A DNA stretch of 64,000 nucleotides from Candidatus Omnitrophota bacterium (GCA_023818695.1 JAMWCF010000001.1:595306-659305), one strand, 5' to 3'. Numbered from the stretch's first letter, positions 26,517 through 57,640 are shown. Made by a program: numbers and translations. The notes: a model not told the origin generated them from the letters alone.

Positions 26517-26529
26517 AACTTGCTATACT
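26501..26529 (+). promoter_or_regulatory. rpoN promoter: sigma-70 TTGACA-17-TATACT with a nested consensus sigma-54 element TGGCAC-N5-TTGC
   Basis: Read directly: TTGACA at 26501-26506, TATACT at 26524-26529, TGGCAC at 26509-26514 and TTGC at 26520-26523. The GG-to-GC spacing matches the -24/-12 consensus. The element ends 27 nt before the rpoN ATG. Confidence 0.6.
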
Positions 26530-26556: not shown

Positions 26557-27975
26557 ATGGATATATCAACCCAACAGAAACAACAGCAATCACTTACACT
26601 CACTCCAAGTCTCCGCTTGGCCTTGGAAGTTCTCCGAATACCCCTGGCCGAACTGGAGATGTACCTCCAGCAGCAGCTTGAAGAGAATCCCCTGCTTGAA
26701 AAGACTGAAGACCCCTCCGAGCTGGAAGGGGCCCCCGAGATAGAACCCCTCCATGATTCGACAGTCGCCTCCGATGACGACCCGGCGGATGACTTTGAAA
26801 CAAACATTTCGGAACTCTGGCAGGAGAACGACGGTTTTAACCCCTCTCAACAGGAGGAGCCGTTCGCTCCCAGCGTCGTCAGCAAAAGCTTGCCGCTTCA
26901 CGACTACCTCCTGCACCAGCTCTATAGCCAACAGCTCGATGGACAAACAAAGCGGGCCGCCGAAATCCTTCTCAACTGGCTTGACCCGGACGGCTACCTT
27001 TACAGCCCTCTGGAGGAGATCTCGCAATCAGAGGAAATACCGGTGTGCGACCTTGAAAAGGGGCTGGCGGTGATCCAGCGGTTTGAGCCGGCCGGGGTGG
27101 GCGCTCGCTCTCTGACGGAATGTCTGCTGATTCAGTTGGCCCATCGCGGAGATGGAAACGGGCTGGCAGCCCAGATCATCTGGGACCATTTTGACCTGCT
27201 GGTGAAGCAGAAGTGGCATCAGCTGGCTTCCAAGCTTCGGATTCACATCGACGCTCTGCAGGAAGCGGTCCAGACCATCGCCCGGCTTGATCCGAAACCA
27301 GCCCGGAATTTTTCAGGGGAGGTTTCCCTGCCGGTCACCCCCGATCTGATCATGCGGCAGGCCAAGGACGGCTATGAGGTGGAGGTCAACGATGAATCCC
27401 TTCCGAAGCTTATCTTGAGCTCCACCTACCGCCAGATGCTGCGATCTCCCAGCTCCTCTTTCGAAACCAAAACGTTTATCCGGGAAAAAATGCGGCAGGG
27501 CTCTTGGCTCATTAAAGCGATCGAACAGAGGAAACAGACCCTCCTGTCGATCGCCCGGTGCGTCGTGCAGCTGCAGAAGGATTACTTCACCCAGGGAATC
27601 CAGTTTCTGCGGGCGTTGACCCAGGAGGAGATCTCCAAAATGGTGGGTTGCCACCCCTCCACCATCAGCCGGGCCATCGCCGGCAAGACGATCCAGACCC
27701 CTTACGGCGTCGTTCCGCTCGAAACGTTTTTCGGCGGGGGCATTTCCTTGCCGGAACAGGACGGCAAGAAGCTGCCCTCCAGAACAATTCAGGCGGAGAT
27801 CGAAAATCTGATCGCCCGGGAAAATCCGGAGAAGCCGTTGAGCGACCATGCCCTGGCGCTGATACTGCGCGAGAAGGGGTATCCGGTCGCCAGGCGGACC
27901 GTCGCGAAGTACCGGACCCAGCTGAAAATCCTGCCGGCCCATTTCCGCCACAAGCTCGTCAGCCGTTCCGCGTAA
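26557..27975 (+). CDS. rpoN: RNA polymerase sigma-54 factor
   Basis: The start at the ATG at 26557 gives region I (MDISTQQKQQQSLTLTPSLRLALEVLRIPLAELE...ENPLLE). The core-binding region, the HTH and the RpoN box ARRTVAKYR are all present. Confidence 0.95.
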   Translation: MDISTQQKQQQSLTLTPSLRLALEVLRIPLAELEMYLQQQLEENPLLEKTEDPSELEGAPEIEPLHDSTVASDDDPADDFETNISELWQENDGFNPSQQEEPFAPSVVSKSLPLHDYLLHQLYSQQLDGQTKRAAEILLNWLDPDGYLYSPLEEISQSEEIPVCDLEKGLAVIQRFEPAGVGARSLTECLLIQLAHRGDGNGLAAQIIWDHFDLLVKQKWHQLASKLRIHIDALQEAVQTIARLDPKPARNFSGEVSLPVTPDLIMRQAKDGYEVEVNDESLPKLILSSTYRQMLRSPSSSFETKTFIREKMRQGSWLIKAIEQRKQTLLSIARCVVQLQKDYFTQGIQFLRALTQEEISKMVGCHPSTISRAIAGKTIQTPYGVVPLETFFGGGISLPEQDGKKLPSRTIQAEIENLIARENPEKPLSDHALALILREKGYPVARRTVAKYRTQLKILPAHFRHKLVSRSA

Positions 27976-28060: not shown

Positions 28061-29107
28061 TTAAGAACTGGATGCTTCGCTGGGAATGATGTGCGATACG
28101 GACAGGGCGGTCTGCGCCAAACCGATCAGCTTGCGCAGCAGCTCAACGTCCTCCACAGAGAAGGAGGTGGCCTCCCTCGTGCTTCTCAAGTTCAGAACGC
28201 CGACCAGGTGATCGCCGGAGCCGTGGGAGAAGGGGGCCACTAGAGAAGAGGTCAGCTCGGGCCGCCTCATCCGGCTGGAGATCTGCGGATCGGTTTCCTG
28301 GCGGCCGACGAGAAGGATCTCTTTCCTTTCCAAAGCCAATCCCGCCATGCTCCCGAAGGAGGAGAAAGCCCCAACCCGGACTACCTCCTCCGGCAGCCCG
28401 GAGGCCGCCGCGATCCGGAACATCCTCTTTTTATCATCGTAGAGGAGGATCGACCCACCCTCCGCGTGCGTCGCCGCGCAGGCGACATCGAGGAAAGCAT
28501 TCCAGAGGCGTCCTCCGTAATGCTTTAGGATCACCTGGTCCACCTGCCCGAAAGGAAGGATCCCCTTGAGCTGGTTGGCCTGGTAGGCCATCTCCAGCAG
28601 GGAGTTGCCCATCTCCTCCAGCATGGAGAGGACCGCCTTGAAGGTGGTGTAGGTGTACGCCTTGAGGGTCAACAGGAGCTCCCAGACCGGCGCGGGATCC
28701 ACACCCATCTGGACCGCTCTCTGCCGGAACGACTCCGCGCTTTCCCTCGGACCCAGAACAACGGGACCGATCACCAGGTATCCCACGATCCAATTTGCCG
28801 AGGCCCGCAGGGGGATGGCAGCAAATGAAAAACCGAGGGGCCTGGTGGTGGCGGTGGTCATCTGCGGGAGGATTTCAGCGGAGGGAAACAGTTCCTCCAT
28901 CTCATCGCCGATTTGCAGAAGTTCGACCATCCGGGAAGCGTCTATCCCGGCTGGCCAGGAGGGATCGACGAGATGCATTTTGGAAACCGACAGAGTCCGA
29001 ATCCCCACCCCCAGAACCCGTGAGAAATGGGACTGCAGCCGATGCCAGCGGTCGGGCGGGATCAGCTCCAAAAGTTCGGGCCGACGCTCCTGCTCGTATG
29101 AGGTCAT
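28061..29107 (-). CDS. Sensor protein with PocR-like N-terminal domain and C-terminal GAF domain, no output domain
   Basis: 348 aa. The N-terminal half resembles PocR-type ligand-binding domains (FAAIPLRASANWIVGYLVIGPVVL). The C-terminal half is GAF-like (GGSILLYDDKKRMFRIAAASGLP...LVAPFSHGSGDHLVGVLNL). It is the third gene of the kinase/activator operon. Confidence 0.7.
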   Translation of the reverse strand: MTSYEQERRPELLELIPPDRWHRLQSHFSRVLGVGIRTLSVSKMHLVDPSWPAGIDASRMVELLQIGDEMEELFPSAEILPQMTTATTRPLGFSFAAIPLRASANWIVGYLVIGPVVLGPRESAESFRQRAVQMGVDPAPVWELLLTLKAYTYTTFKAVLSMLEEMGNSLLEMAYQANQLKGILPFGQVDQVILKHYGGRLWNAFLDVACAATHAEGGSILLYDDKKRMFRIAAASGLPEEVVRVGAFSSFGSMAGLALERKEILLVGRQETDPQISSRMRRPELTSSLVAPFSHGSGDHLVGVLNLRSTREATSFSVEDVELLRKLIGLAQTALSVSHIIPSEASSS

Positions 29108-29136: not shown

Positions 29137-30528
29137 TTAAAAATTCGACCGGAGACGGTCTGGGTCAATCGAAAACCGCTTCAGTTTGTGGTACAAAGTC
29201 GCCCGGTGAATGCCCAGCCTTTTGGCGGCAAGAGACCGGTTGTAGCCGCATTCCTTCAAGACCTTCATGATGATCTCCCGCTCCGGGTCCCGAAGTGCCT
29301 CCTTCAGGGTGGACGGGTCATCGCCATTTTCGGCCTGCGGCGCCGGCTCCTGTGACAGATGGGGAGGCTCCCCCCGCCGGATCGTGTCCGGCAGGTCCTC
29401 CACATCGACAAAGGTTTTTTGATTCATGACGATCGCCCGCTCGATGGCGTTTTCCAGCTCGCGGACATTGCCCGGCCAGGGATACCGCCTCAAGAGATCC
29501 AAAGCGGCTGGCGTCACGCTGTCCATCGTTCTTCCCATCTGGGTGGAAATCTTTTTGAGGAAATGCTCCACGAGGATGGGAACGTCGCTGGCCCTCTCCC
29601 GCAAGGGGGGAATGTGGAGTGAAATAACGTTGAGACGGTGATAAAGGTCTTCCCTGAATTTCCCTTCCTTTACAAAGGCATCCAGATTCCGGTTGGTCGC
29701 CGCAATGATCCGGACATCGACCCGGATGGTCCTGTTGTCTCCCACCCGCTCAAATGTCCGGTCCTGAATGACCCGCAGGACTTTGACCTGCATGGCCGGC
29801 GAAAAGGTATCAACCTCATCCAGCAGAATGGTCCCGCCGTCCGCGACCTCGAAACGGCCCTCCTTGTCCCGGATGGCGCCGGTGAAAGATCCCCGGACGT
29901 GACCGAAAAGCTCGCTTTCCAAAAGGGTCTCCGGCAGAGCCCCGCAGCTGACTTCCACAAACGGGTTCTTGCATCTCTTCGGGTCGGCCCGGTGGATCGC
30001 GTGGGCGATCACTCTTTTGCCGGTCCCGCTTTCGCCCCTTAACAGAACGGTGGCCGGACTTTGGGCGATGAGCGTGATCTTTCTGCGGAGATCCTCCATG
30101 GAAGCGTGGTGTCCGACGATCGCGGAGAACGGGTCGGCGGCCGCCGGCTCGTCGTAGGAGGTGGTCGTCGCCAGCGCCCGCTGAACCGTGGCCTCGAGCT
30201 GTTCCGTCTGAATCGGCTTTGTCAGGAAATCGAAGGCGCCGTTGCGGAACGCCCCGACCGCCGTGTCCAGATTGCCGAAGCCGGTGATCAAAACAACGTT
30301 GATATCAGGATACCTGTTTTTGATGTGCTCCAGCAGGCTCAGGCCGTCCACCTGCGGCATCTTCAGGTCGGTCAGAACCAGCTGAAACTTGCCTCCCTTA
30401 AGCTGCTCCATCGCTTCGGTCCCGTCCGAGGCGACCTCGACGTTGAAGCGCATCTCCTTAAGCTGCTCATAGAGAGAACCCCGGATCAGCGGGTCATCAT
30501 CGACGACAAGGATGCGGTTTCTTTCCAT
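29137..30528 (-). CDS. Sigma-54-dependent response regulator (NtrC family; PrsR-like by context)
   Basis: REC domain (ILVVDDDP...LVLTDLKMP) and AAA+ domain with Walker A GESGTGK. The sigma-54 contact loop is the GSFTGA variant of GAFTGA. A C-terminal Fis-type HTH is present (LAAKRLGIHRATLYHKLKRF). The start is taken at the ATG at 30528. Confidence 0.93.
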   Translation of the reverse strand: MERNRILVVDDDPLIRGSLYEQLKEMRFNVEVASDGTEAMEQLKGGKFQLVLTDLKMPQVDGLSLLEHIKNRYPDINVVLITGFGNLDTAVGAFRNGAFDFLTKPIQTEQLEATVQRALATTTSYDEPAAADPFSAIVGHHASMEDLRRKITLIAQSPATVLLRGESGTGKRVIAHAIHRADPKRCKNPFVEVSCGALPETLLESELFGHVRGSFTGAIRDKEGRFEVADGGTILLDEVDTFSPAMQVKVLRVIQDRTFERVGDNRTIRVDVRIIAATNRNLDAFVKEGKFREDLYHRLNVISLHIPPLRERASDVPILVEHFLKKISTQMGRTMDSVTPAALDLLRRYPWPGNVRELENAIERAIVMNQKTFVDVEDLPDTIRRGEPPHLSQEPAPQAENGDDPSTLKEALRDPEREIIMKVLKECGYNRSLAAKRLGIHRATLYHKLKRFSIDPDRLRSNF

Positions 30529-31805: not shown

Positions 31806-32429
31806 TCAACTGACGATCTGAAGCTGTGCAAGCGCTGCTAAAAAGCGGTTGAGACGATCCTGGCTCTTGATCGGATCTTCCCTGGACGTGGAGATCCTCA
31901 CCAGCGTCCCGTACATCGATCTGCCTTTCAGGAGGTCGGAAAAAAGCCACCATTGCTGCTGATAATAATTCGGAGTCACACGCCCGTTGGCCGTGAACCA
32001 GTACCAGGTTTCATACTCTTTCCCCTCCTGGGCGATGACCAACCGCATCAGCCGCTGCCGGCGCCCTCCCAGCTCTACGGTCATCGGACCCCGCTGCCTG
32101 ATTTCAAAGTCGGCCCCCGCGAAACAGATCTCCGGAGGATGGAAAGCAGCCCTGTTTTTGCCGAACCCGCCGACCCGGGCGAACAGAACGGCCGGCTCCT
32201 CCGGTACAGCGTACTCGACCAGAGTCACATCTTTGGTCTCCAGTATTTCGTAGGTCCTGGCATCCACGCCGACAGGGGTCCCCTTCCATTCGCCGATCGA
32301 TTCCGGCAGGGGGGAAGCGGCAACCACCTGCCCTTGGCTGTTCGCGTTATTGGCGGCCCACACGAGGCCAGCCGCCGACACCATGACCAGGAAAGCTATC
32401 GGTGAAGGACGAAAGAGGGCAGAGACCAT
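31806..32429 (-). CDS. epsI: EpsI-family exosortase-associated protein
   Basis: The internal ATG at 32429 gives 207 aa with an N-terminal TM helix. EWKG...HPPEICFAGADFE and WYWF blocks are typical of EpsI. It lies immediately downstream of the exosortase. Confidence 0.75.
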   Translation of the reverse strand: MVSALFRPSPIAFLVMVSAAGLVWAANNANSQGQVVAASPLPESIGEWKGTPVGVDARTYEILETKDVTLVEYAVPEEPAVLFARVGGFGKNRAAFHPPEICFAGADFEIRQRGPMTVELGGRRQRLMRLVIAQEGKEYETWYWFTANGRVTPNYYQQQWWLFSDLLKGRSMYGTLVRISTSREDPIKSQDRLNRFLAALAQLQIVS

Positions 32430-33268
32430 TTTTCCATCGCCTTGCTCAACCAGGCCAAAGCCGCCAAAGCCACGCCGAACACTACGAACCCGGAACCGTA
32501 ATGAATGAAACTCTCGGCAATGTATGGGCCGTAAATCGCCGAGAGAAGAACCAGCGCGATAATCCGGATCATGTTGGCCCCCAACGCAATCGGGATGGAA
32601 GCCACCACGATCGCCGCCTTTTTCCAGCGCTGGGAACCGGCCGGCAGAAGGGCCGTCCACAGCGTGGAGAGGGCGATCAGGCTGATCAAGGACCGCAGGC
32701 CACTGCAGGTGTCATCCACGATAACCGAGACTCCCGGGACATGGAGCATGGAGCCAGCTTGGGCCACCGGAATGCCCATCATCCGGATCACGCCGGCCGC
32801 CATCGAGGCAGCCAGGATCTTCATCCGGAAGCTCAAAGCGATCAGCGTGACGCCAGGCAAAGGAACCATGAAAAGGAGAAACAGCAATGGGAACCGCAAT
32901 TCCCACAGCATCCGGCGACCGCAGAGGACCCATACCAGCCCATACAGGGCCGCCAGCATCGCGAAGCCGGAAACCACGCCGATCGAAAGCAGCGTGGCGG
33001 CCAGGTGCACCACCACCGCGGGCACCAGCAGGAACAGACCCGCGAAACTGGGAGCACGCGGAATGTTTTTCAACTGTTCACGCCGGCGCCATACCAGCCA
33101 GATGCTGGCGAAGGGGATCAGCCACCCGTGGGAATAGAAGGAATCGGCCGACTCGAAACGCTCGGCCATCCACAGGAAGGTGGGCCAAAAAAGGAAGAGG
33201 AACAGGCCGGCCCACAACGGCCAGACGATGAAACGGCCCGGTGCTGTGGTCCCGCCAAGGAAGCTCAT
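32396..33268 (-). CDS. Exosortase (EpsH/Xrt family transpeptidase)
   Basis: 290-aa polytopic protein with the exosortase catalytic block DDTCSGLRSLISL and conserved Arg/His context. An ATGA overlap links it to the upstream TPR gene. Confidence 0.88.
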   Translation of the reverse strand: MSFLGGTTAPGRFIVWPLWAGLFLFLFWPTFLWMAERFESADSFYSHGWLIPFASIWLVWRRREQLKNIPRAPSFAGLFLLVPAVVVHLAATLLSIGVVSGFAMLAALYGLVWVLCGRRMLWELRFPLLFLLFMVPLPGVTLIALSFRMKILAASMAAGVIRMMGIPVAQAGSMLHVPGVSVIVDDTCSGLRSLISLIALSTLWTALLPAGSQRWKKAAIVVASIPIALGANMIRIIALVLLSAIYGPYIAESFIHYGSGFVVFGVALAALAWLSKAMEKWSLPSFVLHR

Positions 33269-34176
33269 CGAACCCCCGGAGCTGCTCCCTGCGGCGTGGA
33301 AGTCGTATTGGCGCCGCCCTGCGCCGGCGGCGTTTCAGGTTTTTTGAGCTGGTCCATCTGATATTGGGCCACTTTCACGAATGGATGTTTCGGAAATTCG
33401 TTGATCAGCCGCGAGAAGGCGGCAGCCGCCTTTTCCGGGTTGTCCAGGTTTTTCTGGTAAATCTTCCCCAGATTCAGAAGGGCGAAGGGTTTATCGATCC
33501 CCTTGACCTTTGAATTGGTCAGCTCTTCCAAAACGCTCACCGCTTCCTGCCACCGGTGAAGCTGCTGATAGGCCGCCGCCAAATACTGCTTGACCTGGAA
33601 TTCGATCTCCTTGGACGGCGCGTTGAGGATCAGTTTTTTGTAGTGGCTGACCGCCCCCTCGTAGGCCCGCAGGGCTTCGGAAGATTCCTTGCGCTTCTCA
33701 TACACCGCCGCGATGTAGAGGGGAGACTGAAGACCCAAAAGCGTCCAGGGATGATACTCGGCAAGATCCTTGTAGGCCTTGACGGCATCATCCCACTGGT
33801 CCTGCGCCTCATACGATTTGGCGATCGCCATCCTGGCACTCATGCACAGCTGGGAAAACCGGTGGTAATCCTGTAGGACGAGCCGGTACTTTTCCCGCGC
33901 CCTCTCATGCTTCTTCTGAAATTCATAGAGAGAGCCGATCGACAGCTGCGCCCGCCCCGACCACTCGGTCCCCGGCAATTGGGTGATCAGCTTGTTGTAA
34001 GCGTCGATCCCCTTCGCGTACTGCTCCGGCGTCGCTTTAGCTGGATCTTTGAAGATCGGGGCGCTGACCTTCTGGGCCTTCCAGAAAAGCCGCTCGCCGT
34101 TATACTGCTCACTGCACCCCGACAGCGCCGCTATGGAAAAGATAACAAGTGTCCCAACAAAATTCTTAAGCAACAA
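33265..34176 (-). CDS. TPR-repeat lipoprotein (short PrsT-like)
   Basis: Canonical lipobox AALSGC after a signal peptide, followed by multiple TPR-like repeats. The TTG start at 34176 is preceded by AAGGAGG. Confidence 0.8.
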   Translation of the reverse strand: MLLKNFVGTLVIFSIAALSGCSEQYNGERLFWKAQKVSAPIFKDPAKATPEQYAKGIDAYNKLITQLPGTEWSGRAQLSIGSLYEFQKKHERAREKYRLVLQDYHRFSQLCMSARMAIAKSYEAQDQWDDAVKAYKDLAEYHPWTLLGLQSPLYIAAVYEKRKESSEALRAYEGAVSHYKKLILNAPSKEIEFQVKQYLAAAYQQLHRWQEAVSVLEELTNSKVKGIDKPFALLNLGKIYQKNLDNPEKAAAAFSRLINEFPKHPFVKVAQYQMDQLKKPETPPAQGGANTTSTPQGAAPGVR

Positions 34177-35077
34177 CGGTTCCCTCCTTTGCGCTGCGTC
34201 CCATCCATTGAGATGGCACCCGCTCCGTTGCCTGCGGCGCGGACAACCCTTCCGGCCGGTGAAGACACCAGAGGTGGGCGATGCTCACCGTCAGCAAAGC
34301 ATCTACCGTCATCCACATCAAAAGACGGATTCCCGTCAGAAGAAAAGCGATTTCAGGCGTTGAACCGATGACCCACTGGGTGACCCTCCCTTCCGGCAGA
34401 AGGAAGGCGAAAAGGAACAAAGGGGCGGTGAAAACGATCACTGCGGAGAGGGTACTCAAAGGGAAACGGATCGACTCCTTGATGCCTCGGAGGATCGCCT
34501 TCCACCAGCTCAATCCTTCGAAAACCGCCGCCGGGATCGCGTAAACGAACAACCACTGAATCAGAACGGCAAAACAGATCGGATGCCAGACAGCCAGTTT
34601 CCCGCTCGGAATGACCTTCAGCAGAGCTTCCAGGGCGCCCCGCCCCACGCTCCACAAGATGAGCCAGATCAGGGCAACGGTGATATACCGGACCTTTTTG
34701 CCCGCCAGCGCTTCCCTCAAGGAAAGCGGCTTGGCCTGATGAGTTTGCCGAACCATCTCACAAGCGACACCCGACAAAAAGGCGCCTGCCAGCACGGAAG
34801 CAACCACGTGGGTATGTTTCGTGACGTAATAGATAAACCACATGTGCCAGGGGTAATGGAGGACCCTGTCGCTGTAAAAATACCGGACCGGCGGGGCCAG
34901 AAGGGTTGAAAAAGGAGGGTGCGGGGCCAGCCACACCAGCCCGACCAGCGCTATTTCAACAAAAAGCGCCATGATAAAAGGGAGCCACAGCTTTTGGGCG
35001 GGGCCGAAAATCTGGAAAGTTCTTCCCCACATCTGCAGCCATTCCTGAAATCTTTTCACAATGGATATATTGGCCAC
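34166..35077 (-). CDS. Polytopic membrane protein of unknown function in the exosortase operon
   Basis: 303 aa with at least 6 hydrophobic segments. I recognise no family. The start is GTG at 35077, 30 nt after the mini PEP-CTERM gene stop. Confidence 0.6.
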   Translation of the reverse strand: MANISIVKRFQEWLQMWGRTFQIFGPAQKLWLPFIMALFVEIALVGLVWLAPHPPFSTLLAPPVRYFYSDRVLHYPWHMWFIYYVTKHTHVVASVLAGAFLSGVACEMVRQTHQAKPLSLREALAGKKVRYITVALIWLILWSVGRGALEALLKVIPSGKLAVWHPICFAVLIQWLFVYAIPAAVFEGLSWWKAILRGIKESIRFPLSTLSAVIVFTAPLFLFAFLLPEGRVTQWVIGSTPEIAFLLTGIRLLMWMTVDALLTVSIAHLWCLHRPEGLSAPQATERVPSQWMGRSAKEGTVVA

Positions 35078-35107: not shown

Positions 35108-35416
35108 CTACGATTTCGATTCTGTTTTCCGGGCGCGCCGGCGCGCGAACGCCAACCCTGCCGCCCCCGCTCCGAAAAGGGCCATGCTAGCCGGTTCCGG
35201 ATTGTGCACAACAGGATTGCCCCCCACGGTGGTGGAGCCGGATGACCCGGACCCGCCGAATCCGCTTCCACTGGAAGAAAAAGAGGAGGAGCCTCCTCCG
35301 AAAAATCCAAAGAAGTCGGTGAACCCGCTGCCACCGCCACTTCCACCGCAACCGGAGGTCAAAAAGATGGACGATCCAACTAATACCATTGATAAAAACG
35401 TTTTCTTCTTCTTCAT
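35108..35416 (-). CDS. Mini PEP-CTERM protein (102 aa), Gly/Ser/Phe-rich, with lipobox-like signal peptide
   Basis: MKKKKTFLSMVLVGSSIFLTSGC is followed by GGSGGGSGFTDFFGFFGGGSSSFSSSGSGFGGSGSSGS. The sequence ends with PEPASMALFGAGAAGLAFARRRARK (PEP motif, TM helix, basic tail). A GGAAGG/GGGAGGG RBS lies upstream. Confidence 0.8.
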   Translation of the reverse strand: MKKKKTFLSMVLVGSSIFLTSGCGGSGGGSGFTDFFGFFGGGSSSFSSSGSGFGGSGSSGSTTVGGNPVVHNPEPASMALFGAGAAGLAFARRRARKTESKS

Positions 35417-35482: not shown

Positions 35483-35500
35483 AAGCAGAATGCGTACCAA
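35483..35500 (-). promoter_or_regulatory. Sigma-54 (-24/-12) promoter of the exosortase operon
   Basis: The minus strand reads TTGGTACGCATTCTGCTT. GG and GC have exact consensus spacing, and the element ends 66 nt upstream of the ATG at 35416. Confidence 0.6.
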
Positions 35501-35670
35501 ATGACGTATCTTCTTGACGCCTGTCTATATTTTTTAACTTGTTTATTATAAGTCAGTTACAATTACCTATTCGCCTGTGTGCCGACTCTGAAAAATCATT
35601 AACCTCTGTTAAACTGTCTCATCTTAAATTATTGTTGCATTTTATATACATTTTTGTCTATTTAAGTTAA

Positions 35671-35711
35671 CAAAAAATAGGACGGCCCTCCTTCTACAAG
35701 GAGAGCCGTCC
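35671..35711 (-). terminator. Rho-independent terminator after the 227-aa PEP-CTERM gene
   Basis: The minus strand reads GGACGGCTCTCCTT-GTAG-AAGGAGGGCCGTCC, a 14-bp stem with one G-U pair. It is followed by TATTTTTTG and lies 33 nt after the stop. Confidence 0.7.
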
Positions 35712-35744
35712 CACTGGGGTTACACTAAATAAGCTTCGAGATGA

Positions 35745-36428
35745 TTACTTCCGGCAAAACCGGCGAAAGCCGGCAGCCGCCATGCCGAAGCCGAGCAACA
35801 GCATGGAACCCGGTTCCGGGATCACTCCGATGAAGCCCTGGTCCGGAATGAAATCATCGGGTTCAAAACCTCTGTTATCCAGTTTGGCAAAACCCTGCGC
35901 TCCGGGGAATGGGGCCAGGTACAACGGCAGGAAGGTCGCAGGCGCGTAAACCTCGATCACCGATCCCAACGCGCCGGCGCCACCACCGACAATGGCGCCG
36001 CTTCCATCCCGGATAACCACCGTGCCCAAACCACCCTCATTGAAATTAATGATCCGGTCATCGGTGCTCGTCAAGGCACTGTCCCCGTCAAAATCGATGG
36101 CGAAGACAAAAAGCGACTCCTCACCCGGCAAAGAGCCAGGCCCGCCGGCAAAGGTCGGTGGAGCGTAGGTGGTCATCAGGAAATAGAGCCCGTCGTCGCT
36201 CGGGTCTCCACCGAACTCATCCTCCACCCTTAACGAGGAGATGTCCCACGGATCGCTGATATTCAGCAACGGGTTGACATTGAATTCGTTGGGATCGCCC
36301 GCCGCGATGATGAAGGAATCCCATTCCGTTCCCGTAATCACGCCATCCACGACCGGCACAGCGGAGGCGGTGCCCGCGAAGGCAACCAATCCCATCGCTA
36401 ACGCCGAAAACAGTACAAACTTTTTCAT
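35745..36428 (-). CDS. PEP-CTERM domain secreted protein (227 aa)
   Basis: Signal peptide MKKFVLFSALAMGLVAFAGTASA and C-terminus IPEPGSMLLLGFGMAAAGFRRFCRK. Confidence 0.85.
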   Translation of the reverse strand: MKKFVLFSALAMGLVAFAGTASAVPVVDGVITGTEWDSFIIAAGDPNEFNVNPLLNISDPWDISSLRVEDEFGGDPSDDGLYFLMTTYAPPTFAGGPGSLPGEESLFVFAIDFDGDSALTSTDDRIINFNEGGLGTVVIRDGSGAIVGGGAGALGSVIEVYAPATFLPLYLAPFPGAQGFAKLDNRGFEPDDFIPDQGFIGVIPEPGSMLLLGFGMAAAGFRRFCRK

Positions 36429-36472
36429 TTTTCCATTTCTCCTTATCTAGTGTTCCCCATTAAAACGATATA

Positions 36473-37216
36473 TCAACGAAGCCCAACACCCTTGCCGGTC
36501 ACCATCACCAGGAAAGTGGCCGCCAAAATCCGGACATCCAGCATCAAGCACATCCGCTTGATATAAAGAACGTCAAACCGGAGCTTCCTTTTCACATCCG
36601 CGAGGGTCCTGTCATACCGATAATAGACCTGGGCCAAACCGGTCATTCCCGGCTTGACATACAGCCGGTAGCCGTAACCCGGAATCTCTTTGTTGAGCTG
36701 GTCTACAAAACAGGGTCGCTCCGGCCGGGGCCCCACGAGGCTCATCTCCCCTTTCCAGACATTGATCAGCTGTGGCAGCTCGTCCAGGTGGGTCACCCTC
36801 AAAAATCTCCCCACCGGCGTCACCCGGGGATCTTCCGCCGAATGGCGCGCCCACACCGGCCCGGTCGCCGCTTCCGCGTCATGCACCATGGAGCGGAATT
36901 TGAACATGTTGAAGAGATCGCCTGACCGCCCCACCCGCTCCTGGGTGTAGAAGACCGGCCCTCTCGAAGTCAGCTTGATCGCCGCAGCGATCAGCAGCAT
37001 CACGGGCGCGAAAGCGACAATCAGCAGAGTGGAACCGACGAAATCGACCACCCGTTTGAGGGCTAATCGCCACCAGTACCTGGAGTTCAAAATCACATCC
37101 GGGTAGTTGAGGGCAAGGAAGGAACCAATCCGATCTACCGTCTCCTTGCGGATTACGTTCCACCGGGTCATCAACCCCTGCTGTCTATTCACCCATCGAG
37201 CGACTAAGACTGTCAT
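36473..37216 (-). CDS. Polyprenyl-phosphate sugar phosphotransferase (bacterial sugar transferase, priming enzyme)
   Basis: One TM helix plus the PVFYTQERVGRSGDLFNMFKFRSM, DELPQL, GEMSLVGPRP and GMTGLAQV blocks. Confidence 0.9.
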   Translation of the reverse strand: MTVLVARWVNRQQGLMTRWNVIRKETVDRIGSFLALNYPDVILNSRYWWRLALKRVVDFVGSTLLIVAFAPVMLLIAAAIKLTSRGPVFYTQERVGRSGDLFNMFKFRSMVHDAEAATGPVWARHSAEDPRVTPVGRFLRVTHLDELPQLINVWKGEMSLVGPRPERPCFVDQLNKEIPGYGYRLYVKPGMTGLAQVYYRYDRTLADVKRKLRFDVLYIKRMCLMLDVRILAATFLVMVTGKGVGLR

Positions 37217-37268
37217 TTTCTTCTATTAACTTTCCGTTCGAGACAAGAACTCCTCTCTCTTGCAGATA

Positions 37269-37286
37269 AAGCAGGAACTATGCCAG
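37269..37286 (-). promoter_or_regulatory. Sigma-54 (-24/-12) promoter of the sugar-transferase / PEP-CTERM-227 unit
   Basis: The minus strand reads CTGGCATAGTTCCTGCTT with consensus GG/GC spacing. The element ends 52 nt upstream of the ATG at 37216. Confidence 0.6.
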
Positions 37287-37467
37287 TTCTTGCAGAAGAT
37301 CCCAACTAGGGGAAAATTGCTACCATAATCGACTTACTTTACTAGTGTTACGACTTCTTCTTCGATTCCTCTTCAGCGAGGATTTGTTCCTGGAATTTAC
37401 TCTTTTCTTACAATCTGTCTTGATGAAACAACTTGTCGCGTCGTGCAGATGCTACAAAAGACAATTT

Positions 37468-38253
37468 TTAAGCTCTTGTCTTCTTGCGAGAGCGGAAACC
37501 CAGGAGGCCTAAACCAGCGCCCAAGAGAGCCAACGAAGCCGGCTCTGGAATAACACCATTCCCTCCACCGCCTGTGCCGCGGAAGCCCCACTCTTCAAAA
37601 GATCCCTGGTTCGGGTCGTTCTCGCCAAATCTGGAATAAAGATAAACGTACTGGCTCGTCGGCCCGGTGAACAAACTGTTCGGAACGTAAAGGAACATGT
37701 CCTTCTGCCCCTGACCAGCTCCGATAGAAGCATCCAACCGGACGTAGCTGTTCTCGCCGGCGTCCATCCGGTAAATCAGGGTTCCGGAAATATCGATCAA
37801 CCCGCCGGTGAAGGTTTCCACCGACTGGTTTGGCGTGATCGAAAGGAAAATTTGGACTTCATCCAGCGACAGGAAACGCTGGGCCCCACCTGGCTCACCT
37901 ATATCGAGTGAGAATTCCCTGTAATCGGTCCCATCAACATTGATGACGGGAATCTGGGAGATCGTGATCTCATGGTTATGCTGATCGCTGGCCTTGTTGT
38001 CCAAGACGTTATCGACCGTCGTGTTGTAGGCCTGCTCAATGGCGCTGTCGTTACCGGTACGGTCGATCTGGACAAAAGCGGGAAAAGTGCCTGTCCCGGT
38101 GCCGGTCTGGATATCCCGGCTGTAAAGGGCCCCGTTGATGATCCCTTCCGTGGTACCTCCGGTCAGGTCCAGAACCACCGCCTCGGCCGGCGACGCCGCC
38201 AGGCCGAAACCGATCAACACCGCAATAATCCCTGTTTTTATGAGTTCCTTCAT
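37468..38253 (-). CDS. PEP-CTERM domain secreted protein (261 aa)
   Basis: Signal peptide ending SPAEA and C-terminus IPEPASLALLGAGLGLLGFRSRKKTRA. Confidence 0.85.
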   Translation of the reverse strand: MKELIKTGIIAVLIGFGLAASPAEAVVLDLTGGTTEGIINGALYSRDIQTGTGTGTFPAFVQIDRTGNDSAIEQAYNTTVDNVLDNKASDQHNHEITISQIPVINVDGTDYREFSLDIGEPGGAQRFLSLDEVQIFLSITPNQSVETFTGGLIDISGTLIYRMDAGENSYVRLDASIGAGQGQKDMFLYVPNSLFTGPTSQYVYLYSRFGENDPNQGSFEEWGFRGTGGGGNGVIPEPASLALLGAGLGLLGFRSRKKTRA

Positions 38254-38300
38254 AATTCCTTTTCCTTAGCTGTGGAGAAAGACGTTGTTCATGTTAAATG

Positions 38301-38318
38301 AAGCAGGTTCCATGCCAA
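38301..38318 (-). promoter_or_regulatory. Sigma-54 (-24/-12) promoter of the 261-aa PEP-CTERM gene
   Basis: The minus strand reads TTGGCATGGAACCTGCTT with consensus GG/GC spacing. The element ends 47 nt upstream of the ATG at 38253. Confidence 0.6.
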
Positions 38319-38412: not shown

Positions 38413-39540
38413 TTATCTGGCGCGATCCCAGGCAACCCTTTTCCCGGACAAGAGATACCGGAACAGGCCGGCCAGCATGGCGAAATTCCCGAAACAGAAG
38501 TAGAAGACCGGCGACAGAACCGGAATCGGGAGCCCTTTCTGCTGGCAGAAATAGCCGGCGTAAGCGGCCAGGTAAAACAAGGACTGCAGAAGGAAGACGC
38601 TTTTCGCTAAACCGGCCGGAAGCCAAAAGCCGGAGATAAAAAGGGCAATCATGAAAAGGGGGGCCAGCGTCCTCAACACCTTGTGCGAAAAGAAGCTCAA
38701 CGCCGTCCAGCCGAGCAGGGGGTTGAGCATCCGCCTCAATTCGACCACCTGCTGGCAGTTGCCCGCGGCGATCCGCCGGCGGCGGGCGAACTCTCCCTCC
38801 ACCGAGGCCATCTCCTTCTCCCACGCGACCGCTTCCGGCTCATAGACGGCCCGGTAGCCGGCGGAGACGATCTTCATCGGGATCAGGTAATCGTCGTTGA
38901 TGGAGAAGCCGCTCAAGGGCTCAAACAAATCCTTCCGGATGGCGTAAAGAGCCCCATGGGCCCCCAAAATCGAGTGGAGCCGGCTCTCCTGCCGTTTGAT
39001 GAACGTCTCGTACTTCCAGTAAAGCCCCTCCCCTTCGGACCGCAGATCGGCTGATCCGGCCAGGCGGTAAAGGCCGCAGACGCATCCCACTCGGGGGTCG
39101 GCAAAATTCCTCACAAGGTTCTTCAGCGCCCCCGGCTCCAGGTGGCTCGATGTATCGGAGAAGACAATGATCTCCCCTTTCAGGTGAGGGACGATCATGT
39201 TGAGCATCGCCGACTTGCCGACGTGATGATCCATCCGGATGAGCCGGATCCCTTTGGACCGGTAACGCTCGACAATGGCGTTGGTCTTATCGGTGGAACC
39301 GTCGCTGGCCACCACGATCTCCAGCTTCTCCTGGGGATAGTCGAGCCCCAGGGTATTGCGCAGCTTCTCCTCGATCTGGATCTCTTCGTCGTATGCCGGG
39401 ATTAAAAAGGAGACCGCGGGGGTGATCCCCTCTTTCTTCGGCTCCCGGCCGAAGAGAAGGGCCAGCCCCCAGATCAGCAGCGGGTATCCGATGTAGATGT
39501 AGAAAAGCGCCGCGAATGAAACCCAGAAAAGGTCACGCAT
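38413..39540 (-). CDS. Membrane-embedded family 2 glycosyltransferase (synthase-like topology)
   Basis: N-terminal TM helix, then a GT2 core (SFLIPAYDEE, VASDGSTD, FSDTS, NDDYL). Several C-terminal TM helices follow. Confidence 0.85.
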   Translation of the reverse strand: MRDLFWVSFAALFYIYIGYPLLIWGLALLFGREPKKEGITPAVSFLIPAYDEEIQIEEKLRNTLGLDYPQEKLEIVVASDGSTDKTNAIVERYRSKGIRLIRMDHHVGKSAMLNMIVPHLKGEIIVFSDTSSHLEPGALKNLVRNFADPRVGCVCGLYRLAGSADLRSEGEGLYWKYETFIKRQESRLHSILGAHGALYAIRKDLFEPLSGFSINDDYLIPMKIVSAGYRAVYEPEAVAWEKEMASVEGEFARRRRIAAGNCQQVVELRRMLNPLLGWTALSFFSHKVLRTLAPLFMIALFISGFWLPAGLAKSVFLLQSLFYLAAYAGYFCQQKGLPIPVLSPVFYFCFGNFAMLAGLFRYLLSGKRVAWDRAR

Positions 39541-40339
39541 TGGGAACGATCCGCCGCTTGAGCTGTTCGTACCAGTAGACGCCCAGCATTTTCTTCAGGA
39601 GCCAGATCAGCTGCTGCTGACCGACTGCCCACCAGAAAGCCGGCTGCCATCCCTCCACCATCGAGACCACCCTTTCGATGGAGAAGGGACGGCGGACGAC
39701 AATCCGGCGCAGGGCCAGCGGATGGGTCTGCGGGCCGTTGGTGCCGATGGTCGACACCCAGGCGGCCTCGTAGCCGGCCTTCTCAACCGCCTCGGCGATC
39801 GGCCGGTTCCAGAAACCGCCCGGCGCCGCGATCGCGGTGATCGGCACTCCCAGTTTTTCCTCCAGCACCTTCTTCGATTCGACGATTTCTCTTTCCATCT
39901 CATCCCTGGAAAGCTGCGAAAGGGGCCTGTGGGAAACGCCGTGGGAGCCGATCTCCATCCCCAGAAAAACCATCTTCTTCAGGTCCTCCCAGGTGACGTA
40001 CCCCGGCCGGCCGATCAGGTCGAGGGTGACAAAAAAGGTCCCGCCGAAGCGATAACGAACCAGCAGAGGGGCGACCCGTTCCAGATGATTTTTATAGCCG
40101 TCGTCGAACGTCAGGACCACCGTCCGCTTCGGGAGGTCCTGCTTCCCCTGCTGCCAGGCGATGAACTCCCTCGAGCTGGCGGTCCGGTACCCCAGCCGTT
40201 TCAGGCGGGAAAGGATCGCTTCGAACTCCGTGACGGTGATGCTGTAAAAACCGTCCCCATGGGAGGCGGACCGCTGCGTCTCGGAGATCACGTCATGCAG
40301 CGTCAGCGCCGCTATCCTTGTGCCGTTGTGTTCCGTCAT
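39533..40339 (-). CDS. Polysaccharide deacetylase (CE4 family)
   Basis: The ATG at 40339 (ATGA overlap) gives 268 aa. VVLTFDDGYKNH and IGSHGVSH are CE4 motifs. The long track ORF (to 40918) is a spurious N-terminal extension overlapping the upstream gene. Confidence 0.85.
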   Translation of the reverse strand: MTEHNGTRIAALTLHDVISETQRSASHGDGFYSITVTEFEAILSRLKRLGYRTASSREFIAWQQGKQDLPKRTVVLTFDDGYKNHLERVAPLLVRYRFGGTFFVTLDLIGRPGYVTWEDLKKMVFLGMEIGSHGVSHRPLSQLSRDEMEREIVESKKVLEEKLGVPITAIAAPGGFWNRPIAEAVEKAGYEAAWVSTIGTNGPQTHPLALRRIVVRRPFSIERVVSMVEGWQPAFWWAVGQQQLIWLLKKMLGVYWYEQLKRRIVPNA

Positions 40340-43300
40340 GATCCTGCCAGGAGCGCTTGGAGTTTCTCGATCAACTCCGCCATTTCCTGCCTGTGCTTCA
40401 TCAGTAGTTCCGGATCCTTCGAATAGCTCCTGGGGGACTCCAGCAGATCGGGGTCGATTGCCAGGAGGGTCTTCGCCTCGTTCTCGAAGGCCGGGTTCGA
40501 CCTGCCCTTTCTCTTCACCGCCTCTAGGGTTTCCTGAAGCCGGACGAGGTACTCGTAATCTTCGATCCCATCCCGAATCGCCTCCAAGCGGATGGAGGGA
40601 ACCGGCCCATCCTCCCCCGGATAAAAGAGAAACCCGTTGCCGTTCTGGTCCCGCGCGAAGCTGGCCGGGTTCCGCGCGGGGTCCCCTTCCCAGAAGTTCA
40701 CGCACCAGTAGAGAAGACCGGTGGCACCGGTCTTCCAGCAGATCCAGGGGAGGATCCGGGCCGCCATCGCTGGATAGTCGATGACCGGCGTCGGATACGG
40801 GTGGCTGGGCGAGGAGGCGTAGATCCAGACCTCCTTGCCCTGCCTTTTGTACTCCTCCACCAGCTCGGTGGAGACGGAGGTGTTCCGCAAACAGAGGATG
40901 TCGGCATCTTTCAGCCATCGCCGGTATTTCGACGGGTGAGGCGCCTCATGCATCACCAGGAGATTGCGCAGGCCCGGATCGGCCCGGTGGATCGCTTCCA
41001 TCACTTTTGCCGCCTGCGGGTCGCCGGGTTTCGGCTCGTCGTAAACATAGACGTACGCCTGGTCGATGGCTCCCAGCCGGCGCAGGGCGGCGGCGGCCCG
41101 ACCGTACCAGGAGACGGCCTCCGCCAGCTCTCGGGAATCAGCCGGCCAGTTGTTGCCGAAATTCCCACCCCGCCGGCCGACGCCGAAGGCGGTCAAACCC
41201 ATTCGCCTGTACTCCTCGAGCTCTTCTCCGAAAGAGGCGGCGGAAGGGTCCGCTCCCCAGACGGGGGAAATCCGGTACCGGAGCATCTCCCGGAAATAAA
41301 TTTCCTGCAGTTCATCCATCCGGCCGGCCCATTTTGAACCGTTTGGAACGAACTCCCGGTATGCTTTTTCCAGTCGAAACCGGTAGAAGTCAAACGCGGT
41401 TTTCAGGTGCGGAAGGTCCGGCAGGTTGAAGTTCCAGATCCATACCCGGAGATCGACATTTTTCCTGTTGCCCGACTGGTCGGTCAAAGTCAGAGTTCCT
41501 CGGTACCGGCCGGGGACCGCGTTTTCAGGCGCCGTCAGCGTGACCCAGACCGGCTGGACTTTTCCGGCCGGCACTTCCACCCGGTCCGCCTTGATCAAGG
41601 GATCAGGCCATTCTCCGACAAACTCCACCGGGTAGTACGGCGCGCTCGTCCTGACATACTCCACCTTCGACAGACCGATCCGGTCGCGGGAGATCACCGC
41701 CCCGGAAAGCTCGTGCGCCAGGTCGCTTGTCTTCATGGCGATGGTTGCTCCCTTCTCGCCACCGATCAGGACAAGCTGAACCGATTCCGCCTCACCGCCG
41801 GCCAGCGAAAGAAGCAGAGGGTTTCCCAGTTTGCCCGTAAACCGCTCCGGCTCCCGGAAAACCTTCATCGCGGCCGGGGCCCACCCGATGCGCCAATCGG
41901 TCGGCTGTTCCGATTCTGGCTGTGGGACGATGGGAGTTTCCGACCTCGTTTTGGGGACCGGCGGCGGGGACAATTCCTCGTCGTTGTCATCTTCACTCCT
42001 CTGCACGGCGGCAGGCGGCTTCACCGACGTGACAGCCACCTTGGCCGGCTCCGACTCCCGCGGCTCCAACCGAACCGCGTCCAGATAGAAAGATTCCTCG
42101 CTCCCCGGCCGCCACCTGAAGAGGGACAGCTCTTCGATCCGGCGCAGGTCCAGGTGGGCGGAGGCGTCCTGAAGGCGCATCGCCAGCGTGACCGGCGAAG
42201 AAGGAGGCAGGATCACCTCCTCCTTGTAAAGACGCCCCGCGGCATCCCCGATCTGAACAAACAACCGTTCCTGGGAGGAGTATGGGTTGTACAGGTCGAT
42301 CGCCAGGAGGCGGAACCGGCTCCAATCTTTCAGGCCGGCGCTGAACTTCAGGAAGTCGGAAAGGATCAGTTTGGGGGATTGCCTGTCTTTGAAGGTGGCG
42401 ATCGCTCCGAACTCCCCCTTTGTCCGGAAATTGTTTGTCCTGCGAAGGACGGCCCCCCGGCCGCGCCACCGGACCCGGCTCTCCGATTCCGTTTCGAAAT
42501 CGGCCAAAATCAGACTTCCACCCGCCGCTGAAGAAAGAGAACCGAAACGACCTTTCTCGCCGGCGCCTGGGATCAACCTGAAATCCAGCCGCCCGATTTC
42601 AGGCGGGGCCATCAACCGGTACGGCCTCTCCTTCCAACCGATCCCCCTGCTGATGTACAGAACCGTCTTTCCCTCCTGGATGCGGCCGGACATGTAAGGA
42701 CCTCGATTCGCGTGATCGGAAAAGCGTCGGATCCAGCCGATGCCAATCTGCCCGCCGTGGGTGTGGCCGGCCAAAACCAGCGGGATACCGGCCTTCACGG
42801 CCTCCGGCATGATATCCGGCGAGTGGGCCAGCAGGATCACCGGCGCGCCGGTCGGGATCCCGCTGACCGCCTGGCTCAACCGATCCCGCCCCTCCACCGG
42901 ATCGTCCACGCCGGCCAGCCAGACGCCTGTATCCTCCAGCGCTGCCGACTCATTCCGCAGGACCCTCGCTCCAGCCGCGGCCAACCCTTCCGAGAATGTC
43001 CCCGCCGGCAGGGCCGCGTTGTCGGTATTGCCGGGGACAACCCATATGCCGCCCAATGCCCGCAGCTGCTCGATCAGATCCAGCGCAACAGGCCAACCCT
43101 CCGCCCGATTGACCAGATCGCCGGTGATGACGATCCAATCCGGGTTCAAAGCGTTGACCTGGCGAACCAGCTGTTGCTCGCGGAAGCCGAGCCGGTCGAC
43201 ATGCAGATCGGCCAAATGGACCAGGCGCCGGCCGTCCAGCGCCTGGGCCAGCAGCCCTCGCGTCAACTCCAGCCGGGTGACGGTCAGCCGGTTCGGCTCC

Positions 43301-43374
43301 ACGACGCGGACATAGAAGAAAAGAAGCCCCGCCGCGATCACGCCGCCGGCCGCCAAACGCCATTTTGACTTCAC
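40336..43374 (-). CDS. Fusion protein: TM anchor, COG1408-type metallophosphoesterase, unknown domain with Pro/acidic linker, and GH123-like/DUF4091 glycoside-hydrolase-like region
   Basis: The N-terminal region has LADLHVD, ITGDLVN, PGNTDN and GHTHGGQ. The C-terminal region of about 540 aa has blocks I associate with DUF4091/GH123 (GEAESVQLVL, WPDPL, RLEAIRDGIEDYEYL). The GTG start overlaps the GT4 stop as GTGA. Confidence 0.75.
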   Translation of the reverse strand: MKSKWRLAAGGVIAAGLLFFYVRVVEPNRLTVTRLELTRGLLAQALDGRRLVHLADLHVDRLGFREQQLVRQVNALNPDWIVITGDLVNRAEGWPVALDLIEQLRALGGIWVVPGNTDNAALPAGTFSEGLAAAGARVLRNESAALEDTGVWLAGVDDPVEGRDRLSQAVSGIPTGAPVILLAHSPDIMPEAVKAGIPLVLAGHTHGGQIGIGWIRRFSDHANRGPYMSGRIQEGKTVLYISRGIGWKERPYRLMAPPEIGRLDFRLIPGAGEKGRFGSLSSAAGGSLILADFETESESRVRWRGRGAVLRRTNNFRTKGEFGAIATFKDRQSPKLILSDFLKFSAGLKDWSRFRLLAIDLYNPYSSQERLFVQIGDAAGRLYKEEVILPPSSPVTLAMRLQDASAHLDLRRIEELSLFRWRPGSEESFYLDAVRLEPRESEPAKVAVTSVKPPAAVQRSEDDNDEELSPPPVPKTRSETPIVPQPESEQPTDWRIGWAPAAMKVFREPERFTGKLGNPLLLSLAGGEAESVQLVLIGGEKGATIAMKTSDLAHELSGAVISRDRIGLSKVEYVRTSAPYYPVEFVGEWPDPLIKADRVEVPAGKVQPVWVTLTAPENAVPGRYRGTLTLTDQSGNRKNVDLRVWIWNFNLPDLPHLKTAFDFYRFRLEKAYREFVPNGSKWAGRMDELQEIYFREMLRYRISPVWGADPSAASFGEELEEYRRMGLTAFGVGRRGGNFGNNWPADSRELAEAVSWYGRAAAALRRLGAIDQAYVYVYDEPKPGDPQAAKVMEAIHRADPGLRNLLVMHEAPHPSKYRRWLKDADILCLRNTSVSTELVEEYKRQGKEVWIYASSPSHPYPTPVIDYPAMAARILPWICWKTGATGLLYWCVNFWEGDPARNPASFARDQNGNGFLFYPGEDGPVPSIRLEAIRDGIEDYEYLVRLQETLEAVKRKGRSNPAFENEAKTLLAIDPDLLESPRSYSKDPELLMKHRQEMAELIEKLQALLAGS

Positions 43375-57014: not shown

Positions 57015-57562
57015 GGGAATCTCCCTTGAACCTCGTTGAGAATTGCTCCCACGTTCTTTTGATATGCTGCAAGCGAACCGCGGCTCTTGACGTATTGACG
57101 GACCTCGATACCCTCCCTTTTTCTGTCGGCAGAATCTTCCGGGATGCTCGACAAGACGCATTCAAATACCTGCACAATTTGTCCTTTCAGCCTGTCCCTT
57201 AAAACGGAGCTGGCGCAAGCGCCAAACCATCCCCTTAATCCGTCATCAAAGTTAATTATGGCAACAAGCGGTGCCCTCACCGAAAACGATTCCCCCAAAA
57301 AAGAGACCGACATCGCCTTATGAATGCTCATATTCGCCAAACTTCCAGCTCCATCCTCGACCCCTTCGGATCCCATATTCAAAAGGCGCAATCCCTCTTG
57401 ATCATCGGCCGAATCATCGTGGAAAAACCGCTCTCCCCAATAATGAGGAACCGGATCTCTTCGCGTCACCGTAGCGGCAGGTGGTAAATCCAACCCTCTC
57501 AAAATCAGCATCATGATCTCCTGCCAATTCTCCCAGATCCGGGAATCCCGGCTCCAGATCAA
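57008..57562 (-). CDS. Hypothetical protein (184 aa), coding status uncertain
   Basis: Open frame with a TTG start in the low-GC patch. I recognise no family. It could be a remnant. Confidence 0.35.
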   Translation of the reverse strand: MIWSRDSRIWENWQEIMMLILRGLDLPPAATVTRRDPVPHYWGERFFHDDSADDQEGLRLLNMGSEGVEDGAGSLANMSIHKAMSVSFLGESFSVRAPLVAIINFDDGLRGWFGACASSVLRDRLKGQIVQVFECVLSSIPEDSADRKREGIEVRQYVKSRGSLAAYQKNVGAILNEVQGRFPC

Positions 57563-57640
57563 GACCGACGAGCGAAAACCAAGAAATTCTGAGAAATCCG
57601 TTGTCCTATATAGGAACGCCGATCATTTTCTATCCAGAAA

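Follow-up and report, generated by a model that had tools for sequence, protein, structure and literature searches.

PEP-CTERM/exosortase systems, found widely among environmental bacteria, have been linked to matrix formation in flocs and biofilms, while their regulation was previously described only in Proteobacteria. Haft et al. 2006 (PMC1569441) reported a sigma-54 -24/-12 motif in front of most proteobacterial PEP-CTERM genes, with a 17-nucleotide (nt) motif 1, ending in TTTACA, located about 63 nt upstream of it. The phylogenetic profile of the motifs matches PrsK, PrsR and PrsT; the motifs were found to be common to Proteobacteria only, and further regulators were predicted elsewhere (PMC1569441). 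In Aquincola tertiaricarbonis, pepA was experimentally found to depend on RpoN1, with a mapped transcription start site (TSS) behind a -24 TGGCAC and a -12 CTGCTT box (PMC9850573). Here, we describe a stretch of 64,000 nt from a Candidatus Omnitrophota bacterium (GCA_023818695.1, JAMWCF010000001.1:595306-659305), referred to below as the window, which carries a PEP-CTERM/exosortase locus together with rpoN and an NtrC-family regulator gene. Three -24/-12 elements of this locus, designated P1, P2 and P3 (Table 1), are very probably true sigma-54 (RpoN) promoters fired by the regulator encoded in the cluster. In a literature search we found no paper linking Omnitrophota with PEP-CTERM regulation.

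The three elements had been proposed in a first-pass annotation of the sequence, and we found them on the minus strand exactly where it had placed them. Its further description, namely GG and GC dinucleotides at sigma-54 spacing, a common CTGCTT ending and an AT-rich gap 47-66 nt before the start codon, proved correct as well. The spacing is GG-N10-GC in each case, within a TGGCAC-N5-TTGCW-like context, CTGCTT forms the 3' end of all three elements, and the distance from the motif end to the ATG is 66, 52 and 47 nt for P1, P2 and P3 (ATGs at 35416, 37216 and 38253, respectively). All are intergenic and oriented toward the downstream gene, in DNA of 36-40 % GC compared with 59 % GC for the whole window. 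P1 heads a unit of five genes, encoding the 102-amino-acid (aa) PEP-CTERM protein, a membrane protein, a TPR protein, the exosortase and EpsI; P2 heads the polyprenyl glycosylphosphotransferase gene followed by that of the 227-aa PEP-CTERM protein, and P3 precedes the gene of the 261-aa PEP-CTERM protein. The annotation's wording that such elements precede every PEP-CTERM transcription unit holds within the window, where a regular-expression scan found no PEP-CTERM-tailed open reading frames (ORFs) beyond these three; genome-wide it is not established by the window data. It had also noticed no convincing -35/-10 pair at these positions, which is essentially right, although a weak TTGGCA-16-TAACAT overlaps the element at 38318. 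Sigma-70-like matches in the 28-39 kb region are not above chance (4 vs 3.6 expected), and a sigma-70 reading of P1-P3 was rejected for this reason.

In comparison with the PrsK/PrsR/PrsT system, the Omnitrophota locus shows the same placement of a sigma-54 motif tens of nt before PEP-CTERM genes, after long non-coding regions, a regulator of NtrC architecture (REC, AAA+, Fis-type HTH) accompanied by a histidine kinase, and linkage to exosortase, EpsI, TPR and exopolysaccharide (EPS) glycosyltransferase genes. Besides the phylum, the components themselves differ. The regulator scores 374.5 bits with the PrsR model (TIGR02915, cutoff 502.6), while the AtoC and NtrC models give the higher values of 469 and 422 bits, all of them under their own cutoffs. 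PrsK (TIGR02916) is a multi-pass membrane protein, whereas the kinase found here is soluble, contains a PAS domain and matches the model in the catalytic domain only (77.6 bits, cutoff 300). Likewise, the TPR protein reaches 29.7 of the 312 bits demanded for PrsT (TIGR02917) and has 303 aa in contrast to about 900 aa of the model. Motif 1 is absent, and a TGTYG-N8-CRACA dyad, located some 150 nt upstream, is the candidate enhancer of this locus. Furthermore, the exosortase operon and the priming transferase themselves carry promoters, not just single-gene PEP-CTERM units, and rpoN is physically linked. With the Aquincola pepA promoter P1-P3 share an identical CTGCTT -12 box, and the 261-aa protein has a weak PepA-like match (floc_PepA, 35.7 bits, under the cutoff of 80), reminiscent of the Aquincola/Zoogloea floc system; Aquincola is a betaproteobacterium possessing PrsK/PrsR and was examined experimentally, while the present case is built on sequence. 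Our finding thus extends a known regulatory principle, not new in itself, to a new phylum with non-orthologous regulators. What is added here is cross-species evidence for the promoters, a candidate enhancer, a putative basal promoter of the two-component genes and a conserved, apparently dual promoter at the linked rpoN. Since the same sigma-54 logic is met in an uncultured phylum with another sensor, activator and enhancer, enhancer-dependent, all-or-none control of matrix proteins appears to be recurrent and not a proteobacterial peculiarity.

Directly observed in this case are the sequence elements, which occur in statistical excess and are conserved, and the synteny of the locus. For scoring we used a sigma-54 position weight matrix, which approximates the Barrios 1999 compilation and was built without using the three sites. 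When both strands of the window (about 128,000 positions) were scanned, P1-P3 took ranks 2-4, rank 1 being a site before rpoN (18.2 bits) that was not reported by the annotation. A gap separates ranks 1-4 from rank 5, which scores 13.7 bits and is located inside an ORF. The long glycosyltransferase operon upstream, described earlier as free of such elements within the window, was found to be so, its best match being of 13.7 bits and inside an ORF. Four matches of at least 15 bits are present in the window against 0.45 expected from composition-preserving block shuffles. When each element's own intergenic region was shuffled, its score was reached in 11 of 20,000 cases for P1, 14 of 20,000 for P2 and 7 of 20,000 for P3. 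The pattern TGGYAYN5CTGCTT, drawn post hoc from the sites themselves, has 3 matches against 0.05 expected.

Further evidence comes from related loci. The exosortase used as a single-protein query gave no match in GTDB genomes; an alignment of 28 exosortases retrieved 15 GTDB species-representative loci and 50 metagenome loci, 37 of the latter being non-redundant (315 kb in total), so the comparison set comprised 52 loci (15 + 37). The motif occurs in this set at orthologous positions before the mini PEP-CTERM/exosortase operon, the priming transferase, larger PEP-CTERM genes and rpoN. Among the GTDB loci, strong sites precede the mini PEP-CTERM gene in L003, L004, L005, L008, L013, L014, L016 and L017, and the priming transferase in L008, L009, L011 and L013, probably also in L016, L003 and L007; with the same matrix, strong sites were found before rpoN too. 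A TGGTAC-type site before the mini PEP-CTERM gene, orthologous to P1, is present in at least 14 other loci and a TGGCAT-type site before the priming transferase, orthologous to P2, in at least 20, while L026, L014 and L008 have P3-like sites before larger PEP-CTERM genes. The boxes are class-specific across species, TGGTAC belonging to the exosortase operon and TGGCAT to the transferase, and the retention of such variants in orthologous promoters argues for descent with constraint and not for repeated chance. The exosortases of species sharing the boxes are only 53-72 % identical, and an alignment of 39 promoters carries information in TTGGYAYG-AACCTGCT only, the flanks being unconserved.

The 37 metagenome loci, which form an independent set, gave 35 matches of at least 14 bits: 14 before the transferase, 6 before PEP-CTERM genes, about 10 before rpoN (4 classified automatically and about 6 located before ORFs ending in the RpoN box RRTIAKYR) and about 5 elsewhere. 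Hence about 30 of these 35 strong matches belong to just three gene classes. Counted over all DNA, a match of at least 12 bits was present in the promoter zone of 21 of 52 PEP-CTERM-tailed ORFs vs 79 of 1773 other ORFs, the latter still including transferase, rpoN and overlapping spurious ORFs; many PEP-CTERM ORFs devoid of a match follow the transferase as the second gene of the unit, as the 227-aa gene does in the window. In all loci extending far enough, the cassette of histidine kinase, response regulator and GAF protein keeps its synteny with the exosortase (response regulator: 31 loci), and 21 loci have rpoN linked to the cluster in convergent orientation.

As to the source of these loci, the exosortase from the window has a 100 % identical counterpart at NCBI, assigned to a Candidatus Omnitrophica metagenome-assembled genome, and the locus is also present on Logan contigs from SRR27730039 and SRR27730037. 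The GTDB matches are Omnitrophota, plus a few records with titles beginning with Planctomycet. Several GTDB or ENA records (L003, L009, L010 and L015) are titled 'uncultured Planctomycetia/Planctomycetales bacterium' despite an Omnitrophota-type locus; this taxonomic label was probably passed on by binning pipelines.

The regions upstream of the promoters were searched for a possible activator binding site. Exact k-mers (k = 6-8) did not rise above shuffles, no 7-mer was common to the three regions of the window, and the proteobacterial motif 1 (TTTACA or TGTAAA) was absent upstream of P1, P2 and P3. A search for dyads with spacers gave GTTG-N8-CAAC in 5 of 19 upstream regions, whereas the maximum statistic of shuffles averaged 2.4 and never exceeded 4; in this first set 6 of the 14 occurrences in 263 kb lie at most 300 nt upstream of a sigma-54 box. 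The dyad hypothesis was fixed before new loci were fetched, and it was replicated on the independent set, where 3 of 9 GTTG-N8-CAAC occurrences fall into 1.8 % of the DNA (binomial p = 4.6e-4). The motif was refined, without use of position, to TGTYG-N8-CRACA. When one mismatch was allowed, 22 sites clustered between -130 and -185 relative to the -24 TGG, distributed over 19 of 39 promoters, whereas the background rate predicts 0.44. Paired dyads about 21 nt apart occur in some of the promoters (e.g. L005, L024), and a strong orthologous site is CTGTTGAATTCCCGCAACAG of L045. An NtrC-family activator with a Fis-type HTH would be expected to have its sites in such a position. In the window, the candidate upstream activating sequence (UAS) of P3 is atypically close (-71 vs the -130 to -185 mode) in an intergenic region of just 159 nt, and those of P1 and P2 are tentative (Table 1).

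Taken together, the nearby rpoN and NtrC-family regulator, conservation at orthologous positions, PEP-CTERM enrichment, the candidate enhancer and synteny are five lines of evidence that support the co-activation of the exosortase operon, the PEP-CTERM substrates and the priming transferase as a sigma-54 regulon, as was suggested by the annotation; the rpoN and activator genes on which it relied are indeed close by, the former intact (RpoN box ARRTVAKYR) and the latter with REC, AAA+ and HTH_8 domains. In the mechanism that we propose, sigma-54 holoenzyme would bind each -24/-12 box as a closed complex, and firing would take place only when the NtrC-family regulator (29137-30528) is active, presumably after phosphorylation by the adjacent soluble PAS kinase, a step which the conserved GAF protein may modulate. 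The active regulator would assemble on the TGTYG-N8-CRACA dyad, typically about 150 nt upstream of the -24 box, and remodel the closed complex by ATP hydrolysis, so that three units would be switched on together: the exosortase operon, the priming transferase with the 227-aa substrate, and the 261-aa substrate. The kinase, regulator and GAF genes would have their own sigma-70-type basal supply, to which read-through from P1 would add positive feedback, while rpoN would be expressed from a sigma-70 promoter with an enhancerless sigma-54 box in its spacer, at which the holoenzyme would throttle its own promoter. With considerably less confidence, and only as a tentative proposal, we see here a phylum-wide, independently assembled sigma-54 module with a non-Prs two-component system, an undescribed enhancer and a self-throttling linked rpoN, in which sigma-54 perhaps serves largely for cell-surface/matrix remodelling in these small-genome bacteria. 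For organisms that are uncultivated, the locus offers testable parts, i.e. three promoters, a candidate enhancer consensus, a regulator basal promoter and a presumably autoregulated rpoN promoter, which could be reconstituted in a heterologous host.

Several points weigh against this picture. The weight matrix was drawn up after the finding had been seen, and its weights could favour these sites. Each of P1-P3 departs from TGGCAC-N5-TTGC at two positions, and matches to TGGCAC-N5-TTGCW with two mismatches or fewer are no more frequent in the window than expected (22 matches vs 23.8 expected), so it is the weighting of positions, the location and the conservation across species that give the sites their significance. 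A strong dyad is present in only about half of the promoters, and in the window a site with one mismatch is present at P3 alone (-71), P1 and P2 having just sites with two mismatches. We found no intrinsic terminator behind the gene of the 261-aa protein, and P3 transcripts may read into the P2 unit, which would make the division into three units less clean. The terms 'every PEP-CTERM unit' and 'dedicated', used in the annotation, exceed what the window data establish. Finally, all regulatory interactions are inferred, as are the activator's identity, the dyad's function and the sign of rpoN autoregulation, and the activator could be another bacterial enhancer-binding protein encoded elsewhere in the genome.

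Two other explanations of the data have to be considered. P1-P3 might be a chance resemblance to the consensus in AT-rich intergenic DNA, the genes being in fact transcribed from unrecognised sigma-70-type or other promoters. The two deviations per site, the background frequency of two-mismatch matches and the weak sigma-70-like sequence overlapping P3 are in favour of such a view. Under the weighted matrix, however, the elements occupy ranks 2-4 with a shuffle frequency below 1e-3 per region, dozens of species retain them at orthologous positions although the flanking DNA has diverged, most of the strong matches of the independent set (about 30 of 35) precede the three gene classes, and sigma-70-like matches in the region are as frequent as expected by chance. 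We consider chance resemblance exceedingly improbable, and cross-species conservation effectively refutes it. The promoters may, on the other hand, be genuine but served by a different enhancer-binding protein from elsewhere in the genome, e.g. a true PrsR orthologue, the dyad being a site of that protein or of an unrelated factor. The score of the neighbouring regulator below the PrsR cutoff is compatible with this, as are the dyad being clear in 19 of 39 promoters only and weak at P1 and P2, and our view being limited to the window. The synteny of kinase, regulator and GAF genes with the exosortase is nonetheless the usual signature of a cognate regulator, motif 1 is missing upstream of P1-P3, and neither a PrsK-like nor a PrsT-like protein is encoded in the locus. 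A different activator is accordingly improbable in our judgement, and the in-cluster NtrC-family regulator is retained as the likely one.

The site of rank 1 is a consensus-perfect sigma-54 box situated in the spacer of the near-consensus sigma-70 promoter of rpoN, and the predicted sigma-54 and sigma-70 starts practically coincide (26535 and 26536). The same architecture, i.e. TTGnnn, 2 nt, TGGCAY-N5-nTGC and TAnnnT, was found before rpoN in 16 species, 13 of the 16 having TTG and 15 having TAnnnT. The TGTYG dyad occurs within 400 nt upstream in 1 of 16 rpoN promoters vs 19 of 39 promoters of PEP-CTERM and transferase genes. This arrangement suggests that sigma-54 autoregulates its own gene. 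As no enhancer is seen at the rpoN box, bound sigma-54 holoenzyme would occlude the sigma-70 promoter, from which we infer that autoregulation is negative. Negative autoregulation of rpoN has been reported for Rhizobium etli rpoN1 and Bradyrhizobium japonicum rpoN2; the Geobacter RpoN regulon paper contains no discussion of rpoN autoregulation. For this site only, a working sigma-54 promoter with positive autoregulation, or dual sigma-54/sigma-70 initiation, in place of a repressive operator is the less likely alternative. It draws on the perfect consensus of the box and on the coinciding predicted starts, exactly as described for E. coli glmY, in which sigma-54 and sigma-70 initiate at the same nucleotide (PMC4152352) and a sigma-54 box is likewise embedded in a sigma-70 promoter. 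glmY has GlrR as its activator and also IHF sites, and its transcription is dominated by sigma-54 (PMC4152352). At the rpoN promoter, unlike glmY, no enhancer is apparent, the dyad being nearly absent there, although a different activator is conceivable, and the controlled gene is rpoN itself, which implies autoregulation.

In the gap between epsI and the kinase gene, a sigma-70-like internal promoter was found (Table 1), and 19 of 37 loci carry TTGACN-17-TATNNT, always with a 17-nt spacer, at the corresponding position. Judging from this conservation, a basal sigma-70 promoter probably serves the kinase, regulator and GAF genes, and read-through from P1 into the kinase and regulator genes is a possible positive feedback.

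Table 1. Predicted regulatory elements and genes of the Omnitrophota PEP-CTERM/exosortase locus (positions in the window)
Feature	Position	Strand	Details
P1, predicted sigma-54 -24/-12 promoter	35500-35483	-	TTGGTACGCATTCTGCTT; 16.4 bits; predicted TSS ~35473
P2, predicted sigma-54 -24/-12 promoter	37286-37269	-	CTGGCATAGTTCCTGCTT; 15.4 bits; predicted TSS ~37259
P3, predicted sigma-54 -24/-12 promoter	38318-38301	-	TTGGCATGGAACCTGCTT; 15.9 bits; predicted TSS ~38291
Candidate UAS for P3	38371-38388		TGTTGATGAATTTCAACG; one mismatch; 71 nt upstream of -24 TGG
Weak candidate UAS for P2	37416-37433		AGTTGTTTCATCAAGACA; 2 mismatches; 148 nt upstream of TGG; tentative
Weak candidate UAS for P1	35633-35650		TGTATATAAAATGCAACA; 2 mismatches; ~151 nt upstream of TGG; tentative
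rpoN promoter, predicted	26501-26529	+	-35 TTGACA 26501-26506, 17-nt spacer, -10 TATACT 26524-26529
Consensus-perfect sigma-54 box in rpoN sigma-70 spacer	26509-26524	+	TGGCACAAAACTTGCT; 18.2 bits; rpoN ATG 26557
Sigma-70-like internal promoter	31768-31740	-	TTGATT-17-TATACT; gap between epsI and kinase gene
GT2 glycosyltransferase, last gene of long EPS operon	38413-39540	-	NCBIfam/Pfam
261-aa PEP-CTERM protein with signal peptide	37468-38253	-	TIGR02595 22.4 bits (cutoff 16)
Polyprenyl glycosylphosphotransferase (EPS priming sugar transferase)	36473-37216	-	TIGR03025 295.7 bits (cutoff 295.55); PF02397
227-aa PEP-CTERM protein	35745-36428	-	TIGR02595 above cutoff 16; 44-nt gap to transferase, co-transcribed (predicted)
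Intrinsic terminator, strong, 18-bp stem and T-run	35715-35676	-	ends P2 unit (predicted)
102-aa Gly/Ser-rich mini PEP-CTERM protein	35108-35416	-	lipoprotein-type signal LTSGC; first gene of exosortase operon
303-aa membrane protein	34166-35077	-	no NCBIfam family match; strictly syntenic with exosortase and two-component genes in 35 loci
TPR protein, 303 aa	33265-34176	-	PrsT model 29.7 bits (cutoff 312)
Exosortase, EpsH family	32396-33268	-	TIGR02602 170.4 bits (cutoff 105.6)
EpsI, exosortase-associated protein	31806-32429	-	NCBIfam/Pfam
PAS histidine kinase, 388 aa	30533-31699	-	AtoS-like; no obvious membrane segment; PrsK model 77.6 bits (cutoff 300)
NtrC-family sigma-54-dependent response regulator, presumed activator	29137-30528	-	REC, AAA+, HTH_8
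348-aa GAF/PocR protein	28061-29107	-	kept after regulator; strictly syntenic with exosortase and two-component genes in 26 loci
rpoN (sigma-54), monocistronic	26557-27975	+	convergent with exosortase operon; TIGR02395 390 bits (cutoff 277); RpoN box ARRTVAKYR

Genes of the locus were assigned with family models, as listed in Table 1. An EpsH-family exosortase is present together with PEP-CTERM-tailed proteins, all three of which score above the TIGR02595 cutoff of 16, and this combination identifies a PEP-CTERM/exosortase sorting system. The exosortase is closest to XrtA (180.7 bits) but stays under the XrtA cutoff of 208 and passes the cutoff of no named subtype; it may represent an unnamed one. 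Hundreds of exosortase homologues of 60-72 % identity are present in Omnitrophota metagenomes. The response regulator has the Walker A sequence GESGTGK and the loop GSFTGA in its AAA+ domain. For the priming transferase, public data call an alternative start at 37171.

The mini PEP-CTERM gene encodes a protein composed of a lipoprotein-type signal, a Gly/Ser-rich low-complexity body and a PEP-CTERM tail. As such a gene heads the operon in most related loci, its product is an unusual obligate mini-substrate.

A scan of the whole window with Rfam found no RNA family, and the long leaders are not known riboswitches or small RNAs. Within the long minus-strand glycosyltransferase operon, about 1.1 kb (57162-58303) contains no convincing ORF, just short or overlapping ones, and has neither an Rfam match nor a sigma-54 site. 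The same EPS operon includes, at 40336-43374 on the minus strand, a gene for a 1012-aa protein with metallophosphoesterase and GH123-type glycoside hydrolase domains, an unusual fusion, located just upstream of a polysaccharide deacetylase gene.

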